The notes beneath the pieces are model-generated. The model was not told the DNA's origin. It ran no database searches and was given only the letters and a program-made list of their open reading frames with translations. 64,000 bases of DNA from an uncultured delta proteobacterium (lineage in GTDB: Bacteria > Desulfobacterota > Desulfobacteria > Desulfobacterales > Desulfosalsimonadaceae). The DNA is taken from assembly GCA_963826785.1 (NCBI GenBank), contig CAWGYD010000003.1:288001-352000 (forward strand), written 5' to 3'. Position 1 is the stretch's first letter, and every line of letters starts with the position of its first letter. This document shows, piece by piece, positions 28,623 to 55,326 of the stretch. Position numbers and translations under genes: made by a program.

Positions 28623-28653
28623 TGGATTCCGGCTAAAAGCCTGCCGGAATGAC
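28623..28653. repeat. Solo CGTC-type hairpin repeat
   Basis: TGGATTCCGGCTAAAAGCCTGCCGGAATGAC, same family as the hairpins flanking the GIY-YIG gene. Confidence 0.8.
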
Positions 28654-28922: not shown

Positions 28923-30601
28923 ATGAAAGATCTCAACATCATTATCGCCGGGTCCGCGGGTGAAGGGGTCCAGACGGTGGGGGCGCTGCTGTCCGAAACC
29001 GTTCTGGCCCGGGGATATGCGGTGTTCTCCTGGCAGGAATACGAATCGCGCATCCGGGGCGGGCAGAACAGCTACACCATCCGGATCACCGAGACCCCCT
29101 GCAATTCCCCCCGGATGGATGCCGACATCCTGCTGGCCCTGAATGCGGGGGCCGCCGACAAGTACGCATCCCGCCTCAGGCCCGACGGCATCCTGATCAG
29201 CCCCGCGGAAAAAGAAAAAAACGCCATCACCATCGATTTCAACCAGCTGGCAAAAGACGAGATCGGTGCGAAAATCTATGCGAACACCATTGCCGTGGGC
29301 GCCCTGGCCGGCACCCTGGAGATCGATCCGGAAGCCTTGAACCGGGTCATCCTTCCCCGGTTCGAGAAAAAGGGCGATGAGGTGGTGGAAAAAAACCGGC
29401 AGGCCGCAAAAAAAGGATACACCGCCGCCCGGGAAAAATGCCGTGACCTGTGCCCGTGGGAGCTGCCCCAAAGGGACGCGCGCTTCATGCTCATCGACGG
29501 CAACGAAGCCGTCAGCCTGGGGGCGGCGTACGCGGGGTGCCGTTTCGTGGCCGGCTACCCCATGACCCCGGCCACCAGCATCCTGACCTTTCTGGCCAAG
29601 GAGGAAGACCGGCTCAAGGTGTTCGTGGAACAGGCCGAAGACGAGATCTCCGCCGTCAACATGGCCATCGGCGCAAGCTTTGCCGGAGCCCGGGCCATGA
29701 CGGCCACATCGGGGGGCGGGTTCGCCCTGATGGTCGAAGCCATCAGCCTCTCCGGCATGACCGAAACCCCCCTGGTGATCATCCTGGGACAGCGGCCCGG
29801 CCCGGCCACCGGCCTGCCCACCCGCACCGCCCAGGGAGACCTGCTCTTTGCCATCCATGCCGGCCACGGGGAATTTCCCAAGCTGGTGCTCGCCCCGGCC
29901 GATCCCAAAGACGCCTTTCACAAGACGGTTTTTGCCTTCAACATGGCAGACAAGTACCAGATGCCGGTGATCCTGCTGACCGACCAGCACCTGGCCGAAT
30001 CGGCTTTTTCACTTGCCGGGTTTGATGTGGCGGCGTCGACGCCGGAGATTCATCTCGCCGATGGCCGGGAGATGGAAGCGTATCACCGGTACCGGATCAC
30101 CGAATCGGGCATCTCCCCGCGGCTCTATCCCGGTCAGAGCCTCCACCTGGTGGGAGCCGACAGCGACGAACACAACGAAGACGGCCATATCACCGAAGAC
30201 CTTTCCGGCATGGCGAACCCATGCACCAAAAGCGCATGCGCAAAATAGACGGGCTGCGGGGCGGAAATCCCGCCTCCGGAGCATATACGGGGACGCGGAT
30301 GACGCGAGACGTTGCTGGTCGGCTGGGGCTCGACCTGGGATGCCATCCTGGAGGCGATGGACGCAGCTTGAATCCGACGGCATGGCAAGCGCGGCCATGC
30401 TGCATTTCTCCCAGGTCGTGGCCGCTCCTGCCGGATTACCGCTTTGCCGAAAACAGGAACTACTGGGTGGTGGAGAACAACGTCACCGGGCAGTTCGCTA
30501 AATGGCTGAAACGAGAGACCGATATTGCCGTCTCCGGCCGCATCCACCGGTCCGACGGCCTGCCGTTCACCGCCGAAACCATCAGGAGCCGGTTTAAATG
30601 A
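28923..30601 (+). CDS. 2-oxoacid:ferredoxin oxidoreductase alpha subunit; frameshifts near the 3' end
   Basis: GSAGEGVQT, YESRIRGG, GYPMTPA, EDEISA, ATSGGG, RPGPATGLPT, DEHNEDG, VENNVTGQF. Confidence 0.92.
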
Positions 30602-31464
30602 GCGACACGACAATATTTGACAACCCGGTGGAAAACCAGTGGTGCCCGGGCTGCCGCAACTTCGGCATCCTTCAGGCGGTCGAAAAAGGCGCTGGCGGAA
30701 CTGGGCAAGGCGACCCCGCATGAGGTCTGCCTGGTCTCCGGCATCGGCCAGGCCGCCAAGCTGCCCCATTATCTCAACTGCAATTTCTTCAACGGGCTGC
30801 ACGGCCGGGCCCTGCCCGTGGCCACCGGCATCAAGCTGGCCAACCACGAGCTCACGTCATCGTCACCACGGCGACGGGGACTGCTACGGCGAGGGGGGAA
30901 ACCATTTCCTCCATGCCGTCCGGCGAAACACCGACATCACGGTCTTCGTCCACAACAACGAACTCTACGCCCTCACCAAGGGGCAGGCCTCCCCCACCAC
31001 TCTGCCCGGGGAAAAGCGGACCCTGCAGATCAAGGGGGTGGAAAAGCGGGCGGCCAACATGCCGGCCGCGGCCCTGGTCAACGGCTGCACCTTCCTGGCC
31101 GGGGTTTGCCGGCGACATTGAGCATTTAAAAGACCTGATCGTCGCGGCGGTCAAACACAAGGGGTTCTCCTGCATCGACGTGGTGCAGCCCTGCATCACC
31201 TGGGGCACCCGGAAGGTGGGCTGGTACCGTGACCGGGTGTACAAGCTGGGAGATGACTACGATTCCGGCAGCCTGCAGGCGGCCCTGGAAAAAACCACCG
31301 AGTGGGGCGAAAAAATCCCCATCGGCATCCTCTACCAGGCAAAGCCTGCCGCCGTGTTCGGCCAGCGCTTCCGAAAAAGCGTCGAAAGCGCCCCCCTGCC
31401 GGAAATCCCGCCCCCAAAACCGGATATGATCGAGGCGGCTCTGGAAGGCTATTACGCCAAATAA
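30598..31464 (+). CDS. 2-oxoacid:ferredoxin oxidoreductase beta subunit; several frameshifts
   Basis: [38 protein letters not shown] spread over three frames. Confidence 0.9.
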
Positions 31465-31481
31465 GCGGAAGACGGTTTTAA

Positions 31482-31568
31482 AGTCCCCCTTTTAAAAAGG
31501 GGGATTTAGGGGGATTTGGTGCGGAACCGAAGAAATCCCCCCCGGCCCCCCTTTGAAAAAGGGGGGAG
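31482..31568. repeat. Inverted pair of a variant palindrome (CCCCCTTTT/GAAAAAGGGGG)
   Basis: GTCCCCCTTTTAAAAAGGGGGATTTAGGGGGATT facing AATCCCCCCCGGCCCCCCTTTGAAAAAGGGGGGAG. Confidence 0.75.
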
Positions 31569-31652
31569 AAAAACAGTTAGTGAAGCATTGCAGACAATCA
31601 GAAAAGAATTTTTTTATTGGCGGCTTTGCCAAAAACAAATTCCCCCCTCGAG

Positions 31653-32129
31653 GGCATAGGCGCTAACTTAATGACCGATGCAATATCTTCTAATTTGTCG
31701 TTCCTCTTAAGAGCGTCATTCCGGCAGTCTTTAAGCCGGAATCCAGGAAGACGAAATGAACAGGCAACCAGCGGTATACATTCTTGCAAATAAAAGAAAC
31801 GGCACCCTTTATATCGGTGTGACCTCCGACCTCATCAAGCGAGTTTGGGAACATAGAAACAATTTCGTGGAAGGGTTCACCAAAAAGTATGGAGTCCATT
31901 TTTTGGTTTGGTATGAGCTTCATGGAAGTATAGAATCTGCTATCCAGCGAGAGAAACGATTGAAAGACTGGAAACGAAAGTGGAAAATGCATTTGATTGA
32001 GAGAACGAATCCCGATTGGGAGGATTTGTATCCCGCAATCATTTAGATGGATTCCGGCTAAAAGACTGCCGGAATGACATAAAGGATGATTACGGGGGGG
32101 ATACTATGCGTTAAGTTAGCGCTTATGCC
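31653..32129 (+). mobile_element. TIR-bounded, transposase-free cassette carrying a GIY-YIG nuclease
   Basis: TIRs GGCATAGGCGCTAACTTAA / TTAAGTTAGCGCTTATGCC; inner inverted hairpins at 31714-31745 and 32048-32078; flanks CCTCGAG and CCTTGAG. Confidence 0.88.
31756..32046 (+). CDS. GIY-YIG nuclease family protein (96 aa)
   Basis: VYILAN...LYIGVTSDLIKRVWEH...AIQREKRLK...NPDW; AT-rich compared with neighbours. Confidence 0.93.
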   Translation: MNRQPAVYILANKRNGTLYIGVTSDLIKRVWEHRNNFVEGFTKKYGVHFLVWYELHGSIESAIQREKRLKDWKRKWKMHLIERTNPDWEDLYPAII

Positions 32130-32390
32130 CCTTGAGGGGGGTCAGGGGGGTGTTCGCCCCCGGCCATTTCCAACCCGTCGGAACAATTTATTCCAAAACA
32201 GAAAAGCCCATCGGCTTTTTTAACAGTGTCCATCCACGAATGAGATAATTTGTTCAAGTTCAAGGAAGGCGAAAATTTTAACCGCAGGAATACTCAAGGT
32301 ATTTTGAGGATTAAAATTTGAGCCTGACGCAGAAATTGGGCAAATTAGCCATTTGTGGATGGACACTAACCAAGATGAAAGGAGAACGAC

Positions 32391-32900
32391 ATGAGCAAGA
32401 TCGCAGCCCTGGTAACCCACTATTTTGAAGATGTGGAATATACACAGCCCGCAAAGGCATTTACGGATGCGGGGCATGAAATCGTCAACGTGGGACTTAC
32501 CGCCGGAGAGACGGTGGAGGGGAAAAAGGAGCACACCCCGGTCAAAATCGACAAGGCGGTTTCCGACGTGACCGCCTCCGATTTCGACGCGCTGTTCATT
32601 CCCGGCGGCTTTTCCCCGGACCAGTTGCGGGCCCATGACGCACCGGTCAATTTCGTTTCGGCCTTCATGGATACCGGCAAGCCGGTGTTTGCCATCTGTC
32701 ACGGCCCCCAGCTCCTGATTACGGCCAACAAGCTCAAGGGCCGCACCGCCACCGGATACAAGTCCATCGCCCAGGACATCAAGAATGCCGGGGCCAATTT
32801 CAAGGACCAGGAAGTGGTCATCGACGATAAGCTGGTGACCAGCCGCAACCCCAATGACATTCCGGCGTTTATCAAGCAATCCTTGAACATGCTCTCCTGA
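32391..32900 (+). CDS. PfpI/DJ-1 family general stress protein (YhbO-like)
   Basis: FEDVEY, IPGGFSPDQLR, AICHGP, LVTSRNPND. Confidence 0.93.
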   Translation: MSKIAALVTHYFEDVEYTQPAKAFTDAGHEIVNVGLTAGETVEGKKEHTPVKIDKAVSDVTASDFDALFIPGGFSPDQLRAHDAPVNFVSAFMDTGKPVFAICHGPQLLITANKLKGRTATGYKSIAQDIKNAGANFKDQEVVIDDKLVTSRNPNDIPAFIKQSLNMLS

Positions 32901-32903
32901 TCC

Positions 32904-35553
32904 ATGGGGATAGCCGAATACCGAAAGAAACGGGATTTTGAAAAAACCCCGGAACCCGAAGGAGAGATCCGTCCCCCGGGTTCCGGGCGGCTCTATGTGA
33001 TCCAGAAGCATGCCGCCACCCGCCTGCATTACGACCTGCGCCTGGAGCTCAACGGATATCTCAAAAGCTGGGCGGTTCCCAGGGGGCCCAGCTTCGACAC
33101 CCGGGAAAAGCGGCTGGCCGTCCACGTGGAGGACCATCCCGTGGCCTACGGCACCTTCGAAGGGATCATCCCCAGGGGCGAATACGGCGGCGGCACCGTG
33201 ATGCTCTGGGACCGGGGAGAATGGGAGCCCCAGCATGATGCCGAAAAGGACTATGAAAAGGGCCATCTCAAGTTCATCCTGTATGGGGAAAAGCTCAAGG
33301 GCCGCTGGGCGCTCATCCGGATGGGGGGCAGCGGCAACGAAGAGGGGAAAAACTGGCTGCTGATCAAGGAAAAGGATGAATTTGCCGCCGCCGGAAATGA
33401 CGGCGGTCTTTCTCCGGCAGAAGACGACCGAAGCGTGCTGACGGACCGTTCCATGGAGGAAATCCGGAAAGCCGGGGATGCGGTGTGGCAAAACGGAGCG
33501 GTCACGGCCGCCCCCGATGCGCAGGAAGCCAAAACCCCGTCCGAAAATCAGCCCCGCGCCTCCGGAATTGAACCGGACATCGATCCGGGCGGCCTCGCCC
33601 ATGCCGAAAAGTCCGATATGCCCACCGATCTTCGCCCCCAGCTGGCGACCCTGGTGGACCGGGTGCCGGAAGGGGGCCAGTGGGTGCACGAAATCAAGTA
33701 CGACGGCTACCGCCTCCTGGCATACAAGGACGGCGATGCCATACGGCTGCGCACCCGCCGGGGAAATGACTGGACCGACCGGTTTGCCAAGATCGCCGCC
33801 GATCTGGCGTCATTTCCCGCCGGCTCCGCCATTTTAGACGGCGAAGCCGTGGTCCAGCGGCCCGACGGCACCACCGATTTCCAGGCCCTGCAGAACCTGC
33901 TCCAGGGCATCGAATCGGGCCGGCTGATCTACTATCTCTTCGATATTCTCTACTGCGACGGATACGATCTCACCGCCGCCCCCCTTATCGCGCGCAAGAA
34001 CCTGCTGGCCCACCTGTCGGGAAAAGTCGACCCGCAAAAATCCTGCCTGCGCTACAGCGATCATGCCCGGGGGCAGGGCCAGTCCATCTATCGGCATGCC
34101 TGCGCCCTGGCCCTGGAAGGGATCATCTCCAAGCACGAAAACAGCACGTATCAGCAGAAACGCGTCCGCAGCTGGCTCAAGGTAAAATGCCAGCACCGGC
34201 AGGAGTTCGTCATCGGCGGGTACACCGATCCTTCCGGGTCCCGCACCGGGTTCGGGGCGCTTTTGCTGGGATACTATGATGAGGCCGACCGGCTGCGGTT
34301 CTGCGGCAAGGTGGGCACCGGGTTCAACGAACGGCAGCTTGACCGGCTCAAAACGGAAATGGAGCGCTATGACGGCGCCGGCGCCGCCCTTTGCGAACCC
34401 GCCGGCCGGCCGGGAGGCCAAAGGCGTGCACTGGGTGCAACCGGAACTGGTGGCCGAAATCGAATTTGCGGAATGGACCCGGGAGGATATTCTGCGGGCA
34501 CCGTCTTTCAAGGGGCTGAGGGAAGACAAATCCGCCCGGGAGGTCCGCCGGGAGACCGGGCTGGTAAAAGACGCGCCGGAAAAACAACCGGATTTAGATA
34601 AATCCCCAAAGGAGACCGTCATGGAAAGCAGCCCAGGACAGGCCGGCGGCGACCGGGTTTCCGGCGTGCGCCTGACCCATCCGGACCGGGTGCTCTACCC
34701 CGAGCAGGGGGTGACCAAGCTGGCCCTGGCCCGATATTACGAAAAAATAGCCGCATACATGATCCCGCACATCAAGGGCCGCCCCCTGACCCTGGTCCGC
34801 TGCCCCCGGGGAAGGGAAAAAGAATGCTTCTACCAGAAGCATTTCACCGAGGCCATGCCCGAACACCTCCGGGGAGTGGAAATCGCGGAAAAAAAAGGGG
34901 TCGACACCTATGTGGTGGCAGACGACGTCCGGGGGCTGATCAGCCTGGTCCAGATGGGGGTGCTGGAAATCCACCTGTGGAACTGCCGGGAAGACAAGAT
35001 CGAACGGCCGGATCTGATGATCATGGACCTGGACCCGGGACCGGATGTGACAATGGAGGCCGTCATCGAAGCCACCCTGATGATGCACGACCTGCTCGGT
35101 GAGATCGGGCTTCAAAGCTTTGTCAAGACCTCCGGCGGCAAGGGGTTTCACGTGGTGGTCCCCCTGGTGCGCCGGACCGGCTGGGATGAGCTCAAAGCAT
35201 TTTCCCGGGCCGTGGCCGAAACTCAGGTGAAGCGCCACCCGGACAAATTTGTGGCCACCATGACCAAAAGCCGGCGCCACGGCAAAATCTTCATCGATTT
35301 CTTCCGAAACGGCCGGGGGGCCACCAGCGTGGCCCCCTATTCCACCCGGGCCCGGCCCGGCGCGCCGGTGTCGGCCCCTTTGCGCTGGGATGAACTGACC
35401 GCAGACCTCAAACCCGATGCCTACCGGACCGACAACCTGATCCACCGGATGGCGGCCCTGACGGAAGACCCCTGGAACGATTTTTTTGCCCCCTCCCAGT
35501 CGATCACCCGGAAAATGAAGCAGGCGGTGGGGATGAAAGATGTCCGGAGCTGA
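32904..35553 (+). CDS. ligD: DNA ligase D (phosphoesterase-ligase-polymerase); frameshift near 34375
   Basis: KRDFEKTPEP, HYDLRLE, EIKYDGYR, WLKVK, LTHPDRVLYP, DLDP, KTSGGKG. Confidence 0.95.
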
Positions 35554-38998: not shown

Positions 38999-39248
38999 GG
39001 CATAGGCGCTAACTTAATGACCGATGCAATATCTTCTAATTTGTCGTTCCTCTTAAGAGCGTCATTCCGGCAGTCTTTAAGCCGGAATCCAGGAAGACGA
39101 AATGAACAGGCAACCAGCGGTATACATTCTTGCAAATAAAAGAAACGGCCCCCTTTGCTATTCATTGGATTCCGGCTAAAAGACTGCCGGAATGACATAA
39201 AGGATGATTACGAGGGGGATACTATGCGTTAAGTTCAGCGCTTATGCC
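38999..39248 (+). mobile_element. MITE: internal-deletion derivative of the GIY-YIG cassette
   Basis: Same TIRs and inner hairpins as 31653..32129; keeps only the first ~18 codons of the nuclease; direct repeat CTTGAGG on both sides. Confidence 0.9.
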
Positions 39249-45295: not shown

Positions 45296-45544
45296 GGCAT
45301 TACGTCTAACTTAACGCATAGTATCCCCCCCGTAATCATCCTTTATGTCATTCCGGCAGTCTTTTAGCCGGAATCCAATGAATAGCAAAGGGTGCCGTTT
45401 CTTTTATTTGCAAGAATGTATACCGCTGGTTGCCTGTTCATTTCGTCTTCCTGGATTCCGGCTTAAAGACTGCCGGAATGACGCTCTTAAGAGGAACGAC
45501 AAATTAGAAGATATTGCATCGGTCATTAAGTTAGCGCCTATGTC
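45296..45544 (-). mobile_element. MITE: second deletion derivative of the GIY-YIG cassette, reverse orientation
   Basis: Near-exact reverse complement of 38999..39248; 8-bp direct repeat CCCTCAAG on both sides. Confidence 0.9.
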
Positions 45545-54697: not shown

Positions 54698-55326
54698 ATA
54701 GGGGGGATGCCCGGGTGAGAGCGGGATTCATCATTTGATTGCTTGACTGGATTCCGGCTAACAGATTGGCGGCGGCAGGCCGCGACACCCCCCCTAACCC
54801 CCCTCAAGGGGGGAATAAATAGGGGGTCGCCCGGGCGAGAGCGGGATTCATCATTTGATTGCTTGACTGGATTCCGGCTAACAGATTGCCGGAATGACGG
54901 AGGTTTGCAGGGGGGATGCCATACGTTTGCATTCCCCTCTCGAGAGGAGATATTCGTATTTCCCCCCTCGAGAGAAGATGTCAGCATTCCCCTCTTGAGA
55001 GGAGATTCCTTGCTTTCGTATTCCCCCCTAAGGGAAGATGCCGTGCGTTCGTATCCCCTCTTGAAGGAGATGCCCTTGCATTCGTATTCCCCCCTTGCAG
55101 GGGAGATGCCACCTGTCGTATTCCCCCCTTGCAGGGGAGATGCCACCTGTCGTATTCCCCCCTTGAGGGGGGTCAGGGGGGTGTAGCGCTTGAGGGTATA
55201 GTGAATATGCCCCTTCGAGGAGGGTCAGAAGGATGTTATACATAGCGGAAATTCCCCCCTTGTGGGGATCCAAGGGGGTGTTCCGTATTTCTAAATTCCC
55301 CCCTTGAGGGGGGTCAGGGGGGTGTC
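54635..55326. repeat. Composite repeat array: two ~122-bp units with a CGTC hairpin, then about eight degenerate 27-34 bp palindromic units
   Basis: GGATTCCGGCTAACAGATTG twice; CGTATTCCCCCTTGCAGGGGAGATGCC-like units at 54930-55170. Confidence 0.85.

Follow-up and report, generated by a model that had tools for sequence, protein, structure and literature searches.

Organization of the cassette

The window, by which we mean the whole 64,000-nucleotide stretch of DNA that was analysed, contains a cassette of 473 bp at 31655–32127, bounded by 17-bp terminal inverted repeats (TIRs) whose first bases are CAT. The left TIR (31655–31671, plus strand) matches the end of IS186 at 16 of 17 positions, and the right TIR (32111–32127, minus strand) is identical at 17 of 17 to the first 17 nt of Escherichia coli IS186 (locus L140) and to both ends of another element, L141. 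Inside the TIRs, a left spacer (31672–31713, plus strand) and a right spacer (32080–32110, minus strand) lead to two hairpins of the NTS/SRM type with their heads facing outward, at 31714–31746 (plus strand) and 32047–32079 (minus strand); the left one is CGTC-headed, with an 8-bp stem, a 9-nt loop and a CCA tail. The sole open reading frame between the hairpins (31756–32046, plus strand) encodes a 96-residue GIY-YIG protein (Pfam E = 2e-14) and is directly preceded by a ribosome-site-like AGGAAG motif; a consensus promoter scan returned no convincing promoter for this gene. Repeat searches recovered the outer inverted repeat at 31652–31671/32111–32130 (20 nt, 95%) and the inner pair at 31715–31745/32048–32078 (31 nt, 97%) and, together with the Pfam search, bore out the initial annotation, which had described an inverted hairpin pair with only a 96-residue GIY-YIG gene between. 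End motif frequency and hairpin folding are both beyond chance: the genome contains the motif 22 times and a reversed control 0 times, and the hairpins fold with z-scores of −2.8 and −5.2.

The cassette is flanked by an 11-bp target duplication (31644–31654 and 32128–32138) whose two copies differ by a single C/T mismatch at the variable central base. Its insertion interrupts a C6-T-YG-A-G6 palindrome of the C6-T-NN-A-G6 repeat family, in keeping with the earlier claim that the unit splits a palindrome. Such a target, with its C-run leading into a G-run, leaves the exact junction ambiguous for most copies of the element. One copy, at C5:294105–294577, lies in a G-run/G-run site between the two halves of an exact 11-bp duplication; it starts with CAT, and its last bases are ...TTATG, not ...ATGCC. 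The leading GG is therefore target DNA, and the element runs from CAT to ATG. The TIR-bounded unit first proposed is real, but its dimensions of 477 bp with 19-bp TIRs had included this GG. Two further copies in the window are internally deleted: one of 246 bp on the plus strand at 39001–39246 (C3:327001–327246), with 18 codons left and an exact 11-bp duplication, and one of 245 bp on the minus strand at 45298–45542 (C3:333298–333542).

Copies and target sites in the source genome

The genome-wide check of TIRs and hairpins that had been recommended yielded 12 copies at separate sites in the source genome (G000, 87.8% complete), each with its own flanks and duplication, together with four remnants. 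Six copies are 473–475 bp long (one of them frameshifted), five are 245–246 bp and one is 333 bp; one remnant lacks the left end but carries an intact, 93%-identical gene. Relative to the window's gene, four copies differ by 1 base and one by 2 (three and one when only intact full-length copies are counted), and this near-identity among intact full-length copies indicates recent spread. Three other runs contain stretches nearly identical to the element (1 difference in 376 nt, 2 in 325 nt and 0 in 191 nt), and one public run shows a different internal deletion.

The target duplications measure 11 bp in 10 of the 12 copies and 12 bp in 2; they are exact in seven, rare target variants included, and mismatched in five. 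Eleven targets are of the C-run/G-run type and one is G-run/G-run. The C6-T-NN-A-G6 palindrome is present in 301 intact copies in the genome, and these unoccupied repeats represent the pre-insertion structure at the level of the repeat family only. Three duplications (that of the cassette at 31644–31654/32128–32138, and those at G000 C8:28207 and C5:314836) vary at one and the same central position between CG and TG/CA, a pattern that deamination of a methylated cytosine, or conversion between copies, would be expected to leave.

The five 245–246-bp copies, which retain 18 gene codons and lack most of the nuclease gene, occupy the same target with the same duplication as the full copies; the nuclease gene is therefore not needed in cis, and the nuclease may act on the deleted copies in trans from intact ones. 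The idea that the nuclease itself chooses or cuts the C6-G6 target is not supported, in view of these five copies and of the related enzyme SsnA, which cuts only single-stranded DNA beside its own hairpin (accessible text of PMC11893778).

A search for empty or polymorphic sites, another check that had been put forward, found none among relatives at the DNA level or in four public runs. The window locus was found at the DNA level in no relative, with 6 of 61 genomes matching any part of the element, and comparison of the four public runs with window positions 30400–33600 gave no contig joining across the element.

Ends and family assignment

Both cassette ends fit every fixed position of the IS231-subgroup end consensus, CAT-------AA--TAA, which Table 1 of PMC2266710 lists with 10–12-bp repeats and without naming IS186; the duplications of 11 or 12 bp fall within that range. 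NCBIfam models place the IS186 protein and the protein of a second locus, L084, in the IS4 family above cut-off. Judged from sequence, the ends and the duplication fit the IS4 family, IS231 subgroup, and not IS1595. The initial annotation had pointed to a passenger-only derivative of the IS1595 family with GGC ends and 8-bp duplications, as the GGCAT junction of most copies would suggest, but this is highly improbable: the GG belongs to the target, as copy C5:294105 demonstrates, GGC ends would imply duplications of 7 bp where 11 bp are observed, the ends start with CAT and match those of IS186, and a search of the genome for an IS1595 transposase (PF12762) gave no match.

The likeness to IS186/IS421 of E. 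coli extends from the first 17 nt of the end to a target that depends on G/C runs and, if the ends are taken from CAT, to a duplication of about 10–11 bp. Unlike IS186/IS421, the cassette lacks a transposase and its targets are C-run/G-run or G-run/G-run, not the GGGG(N6/7)CCCC given for IS186 in the accessible part of PMC5009759. None of the 12 cassette sites matches that target, which indicates that the partner transposase is not IS186 itself; one relative, L189, does use it.

A candidate transposase acting in trans

An IS186-like transposase was found in 5 of 301 genomes of the order. One of them, G125, contains the complete 1377-bp element L141, both of whose 17-bp ends are identical to the cassette's right end; it sits in a G-run site with a duplication of 11 bp, and its transposase is intact, has a YREK motif and is 51% identical to an NCBIfam IS4 transposase. 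At two further loci, L084 and L101, an IS186-like transposase stands beside an end in a C-run/G-run target. The partner of the cassette is probably a related transposase that reads G/C runs in either orientation.

Searches of G000, at its 87.8% completeness, found no IS186-like transposase; IS4-type searches gave only weak matches to other families, and self-comparison for multi-copy elements recovered nothing but the cassette with IS186-type ends. No intact IS186-like transposase was found in three other genomes that carry cassettes or remnants (G002, G019 and G364), and only in G013 do cassette remnants occur together with partial transposases. The search for an autonomous transposase with the same ends therefore succeeded within the order, in L141, but not within G000 itself.

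IS186-type ends also bracket unrelated small cargo in other genomes, and the ends are therefore a general vehicle. At seven loci (L030, L055, L081, L089, L091, L131 and L324) they surround other repeat dimers or heptamer arrays, and the smallest IS186-ended element seen is 25 bp long and consists of two fused ends. The earlier reading of a repeat-associated nuclease module held between IS ends with no transposase inside stands, and movement in trans is most likely, given the deleted copies and the cognate-ended L141.

The cargo is an Ssn-type nuclease

The accessible text of PMC11893778 (Chenal et al. 2025) describes Ssn proteins as single-domain GIY-YIG nucleases encoded between CGTC-headed hairpins, with NTS and SRM repeats and with SsnA of Neisseria meningitidis (cd10448) as the reference. 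There, cleavage by SsnA is confined to single-stranded DNA and falls a few bases upstream of the hairpin, with no double-stranded DNA activity reported; the identity of the hairpin loop is not essential, Ssn lowers transformation in Neisseria, and the NTS-ssnA-NTS arrangement is likened to a mobile element, with mobility put forward as a hypothesis.

The window protein, at 96 residues (<150) with PF01541 as its sole domain, resembles these enzymes of about 95 residues. It shares 58 of 94 residues without gaps (62%) with an N. gonorrhoeae homologue (E = 5e-33, 97% covered), which passes the homology threshold of E < 1e-10 over >75% of the length as measured against that homologue; the latter, our reference for comparison, has 12 NTS matches around its gene. 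Tyr8, Tyr19 and Glu66 correspond in the ungapped alignment to SsnA Tyr6, Tyr17 and Glu64, the residues mutated in SsnA, with the same spacing, and CGTC-headed hairpins lie on both sides. The cargo gene is, on these sequence grounds, an Ssn-type GIY-YIG nuclease with predicted cleavage of single-stranded DNA. As both hairpin heads point outward, cuts would be predicted in the spacers, on opposite strands; by analogy with SsnA (accessible text of PMC11893778), the predicted cut zone of the left spacer is its final few bases.

The cassette differs from the published Ssn units in its 9-nt hairpin loop and in an SRM pattern that is off by one loop base: the strict published pattern misses both hairpins, and both match once one loop position is freed. 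Strict matches on both sides were found at 38 of 96 homologue loci; the corresponding figure in the accessible text of PMC11893778 is 42%. It differs further in being enclosed in IS ends and amplified to six full copies; no description of Ssn units packaged in IS ends was found in the accessible part of that paper.

The hairpins also recall the CGTC-tagged REPs surveyed by Di Nocera et al. 2013, which share with them the CGTC/TGTC head, the 8-bp stem starting with AT and the CCA tail, and which the accessible part of that survey (PMC3733652) treats as REPs without a dedicated transposase. Unlike those repeats, the cassette hairpins have a longer loop, and 28 of the 40 hairpins of the window subtype in the genome (≤5 mismatches) lie inside cassette copies or remnants. 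Solitary SRM hairpins of the same subtype without IS ends occur in the window at 28623–28653 and 54868–54898, and in some of the genome's solitary hairpins the ribosome-site-like tail of the nuclease gene is retained. A second ssn-type gene, 63% identical, lies at G000:C4:167247–167525 with a different hairpin variant and with no IS186-type end seen. Homologues of the nuclease were found in 33 records of a plasmid collection and in none of a phage collection.

Purifying selection on the nuclease gene

We estimated dN/dS by the Nei-Gojobori method at loci picked by protein similarity, a choice that favours intact genes. Values were 0.09–0.10 among L186, L189 and L200 (dS 0.25–0.44), which share homologous spacers and have therefore diverged as whole cassettes. 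Other comparisons gave 0.13 (window versus L169), 0.25 (L176 versus L201), 0.23 (window versus the 93%-identical copy) and 0.49 (L207 versus L210, based on three changes only). Low dN/dS at moderate dS indicates purifying selection on the gene while it is inside the ends, despite the bias towards intact genes.

Recurrence of the pairing in other genomes

Homologue loci were assembled from the best 80 of 492 metagenome matches and 29 from a search of the phylum (n = 109); a collection scan gave at least 119 stretches. In a strict search, 19 of the 109 loci had one IS186-type end or more, and 6 had both. We then built a profile from 20 ends at loci that lack ssn and searched with it within 200 nt, leaving out 10 loci with a flank of <100 nt. 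The threshold of 9 bits exceeded the 99th percentile of scores in 357 control stretches, of which one reached 15.5. Within one ssn branch, 24 of the 49 loci have such ends, 16 of them on both sides, as against 0 of 50 outside; the branch was taken from a quick, unfinished protein tree, and some rows were assigned by hand.

A DNA tree of 94 genes (≥60% identical, 240–300 nt), collapsed at 95% to 76 lineages, gave the same picture: 22 of 37 lineages of one branch are end-bearing (L198, at 8.0 bits, was scored so by eye) versus 0 of 39 outside, with support for the 37-row branch of only 89/81. Relatedness of the hosts could contribute to this clustering. Strict monophyly of the 22 end-bearing lineages is rejected (p-AU 5e-6), forcing at least five changes, and from one lineage to another most of the spacers between end and hairpin do not align. 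Decayed ends at the expected distance did, however, turn up at several loci that had at first been scored as without ends, so that losses can explain the rejected monophyly. Repeated capture had been drawn from a first tree test (p-AU 1e-7); it was weakened by those decayed ends, and the loci were relabelled and the test repeated. A single old capture followed by decay would, from the sequence comparisons, be the preferred origin; several captures inside the one branch are possible.

A probable trans-mobilized cassette with the nuclease as proposed working cargo

We consider it likely that the element is a transposase-free, IS186-ended cassette carrying an Ssn nuclease and its hairpins, moved in trans by an IS186-like transposase, with the nuclease as working cargo. 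An IS186-like DDE transposase would bind the 17-bp ends, excise the unit and, through cuts staggered by 11 bp, insert it between G/C runs; in G000 the ~300-copy C6-G6 repeat would supply these runs. The pairing would have arisen once or a few times in one ssn branch and persisted, with ends decaying in stranded copies. The nuclease would be kept intact by selection on its activity and not as the catalyst of the jump; the benefit might lie with the host, through restriction of incoming hairpin-bearing single-stranded DNA, or with the hairpin/nuclease unit itself. Several observations count against this reading: the transposase was not found in G000 despite its near-identical copies, nor an intact one in G002, G019 or G364; no empty site was found among the relatives and runs searched; 5 of the 12 duplications are mismatched; none of the 12 targets fits that of IS186; strict monophyly of end-bearing genes is rejected and most spacers do not align; support for the 37-row branch is modest; and the choice of loci favours intact genes in the dN/dS test.

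As to origin, it is possible, if on balance somewhat unlikely, that the two hairpins and the nuclease form a unit that moves on its own and has landed repeatedly, and each time independently, in small IS186-type MITEs that gather other repeats as safe sites, with no stable partnership. Spacers that are mostly unrelated between lineages and the five or more changes forced by the rejection of a strict clade would follow from such landings; L183 is sister to L189 and yet lacks ends, and IS186-type ends are found around several further families of repeats, the smallest such element measuring 25 bp. Against this, the end-bearing lineages are confined to one branch (22 in 37 rows, with 0/39 outside), decayed ends at the expected distance favour losses over repeated gains, and no empty MITE with the window's spacers was seen.

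A stronger version of partnership, in which one Ssn branch has long resided inside IS186-type ends as a selected partner, hairpin cutting aids spread or retention and the tandem disperses CGTC-type repeats, appears doubtful to us. Decidedly unlikely is the proposal that the nuclease belongs to the machinery of mobility or retention, Ssn cutting single-stranded replication or repair intermediates outside the hairpins and so promoting copying, retention or spread of the cassette while supporting deleted copies in trans. The gene is indeed under purifying selection inside the ends, the outward hairpin heads would place the predicted cuts so that they bracket it, no transposase was found in four cassette-bearing genomes, related copies show spacer shortening and hairpin duplication right at the heads, and the authors of the Ssn paper themselves draw the comparison with a mobile element (PMC11893778, accessible text). 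The insertion junctions, however, coincide with the IS186-type ends, not with the hairpins, and show 11-bp duplications in the DDE style; these ends also move where there is neither nuclease nor hairpin; and the accessible text of PMC11893778 reports no double-stranded DNA activity for SsnA. That copies were created or homogenized by mis-assembly, as the frameshifted look of adjacent genes and indels in some copies might suggest, is very hard to credit given the separate flanks and duplication of each copy, the near-identical pieces in three other runs and the recurrence of the architecture in other genomes.

Relation to known mobile cassettes

Returning to the proposed trans-mobilized cassette, its closest published counterpart is MIC231 (IS4 family, IS231 subgroup), with which, according to the accessible parts of PMC6199540 and PMC2266710, it shares the subgroup ends, duplications of 10–12 bp, a passenger gene in place of the transposase and a proposed mobilization in trans; for MIC231 such mobilization has been shown, according to the accessible part of the review PMC6199540. 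The same source gives MICs a size of ~700 bp to 3 kb, versus 473 bp here. Unlike MIC231, the cassette has IS186-type ends, a G/C-run target within a repeat family, a repeat-bound nuclease as cargo and a host other than Bacillus. Compared through the published descriptions of MIC231, the element is filed as MIC-like and not as MIC231.

The initial annotation knew of no named system with this architecture. Both layers do have names, the inner NTS/SRM-ssnA-NTS/SRM unit and the outer mobile insertion cassette; their combination was not found described, and literature searches, with ISfinder and subscription journals outside their scope, returned no description of IS186-ended ssn cassettes. The layers are known separately, and the new part is their recurrent, selected combination. 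Hitch-hiking between IS186-type ends, recently active here, offers a concrete route for the spread of ssn genes and CGTC/SRM hairpins. The cassette also adds a longer-looped example of an Ssn/hairpin pair; combined with an L141-type transposase, the 473-bp unit forms a natural two-part system in which to ask whether the nuclease aids or impedes transposition or has no effect on it.

Neighbouring elements and a possible second nuclease/repeat pairing

Just upstream of the cassette, at 31485–31565, two C5-T/A-G5 palindromes from a related family of repeats lie as a pair; the autonomous element L141 adjoins a repeat of this type. Downstream, at 32225–32367, an 18-bp inverted repeat encloses a further small element, which is repeated in the genome and abundant in other runs and is likely another MITE. 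The genes for 2-oxoacid:ferredoxin oxidoreductase and LigD in the window (28923–31464 and 32904–35553) are split over overlapping frames, probably by sequencing frameshifts. Elsewhere in G000, two copies of a ~2-kb multi-copy element (C5:280845–282841 and C5:304611–306614) lie <100 bp from deleted cassette copies.

The genome's single gene for a DUF559 (Vsr-like) nuclease (L279, G000:C5:9032–9986) is situated among six C6-G6 repeats, the target family of the cassette. Across 29 DUF559 loci of the phylum (L281–L310), there are 11 perfect C-run/G-run palindromes in the 17 kb close to the gene and 1 in 29 kb farther away, with none in 14 kb around ssn genes. DUF559 and C6-G6 are possibly a second pairing of a small nuclease with a repeat, like Ssn/SRM, of which a literature search gave no description; only three of the DUF559 loci have C-run/G-run palindromes on both sides.
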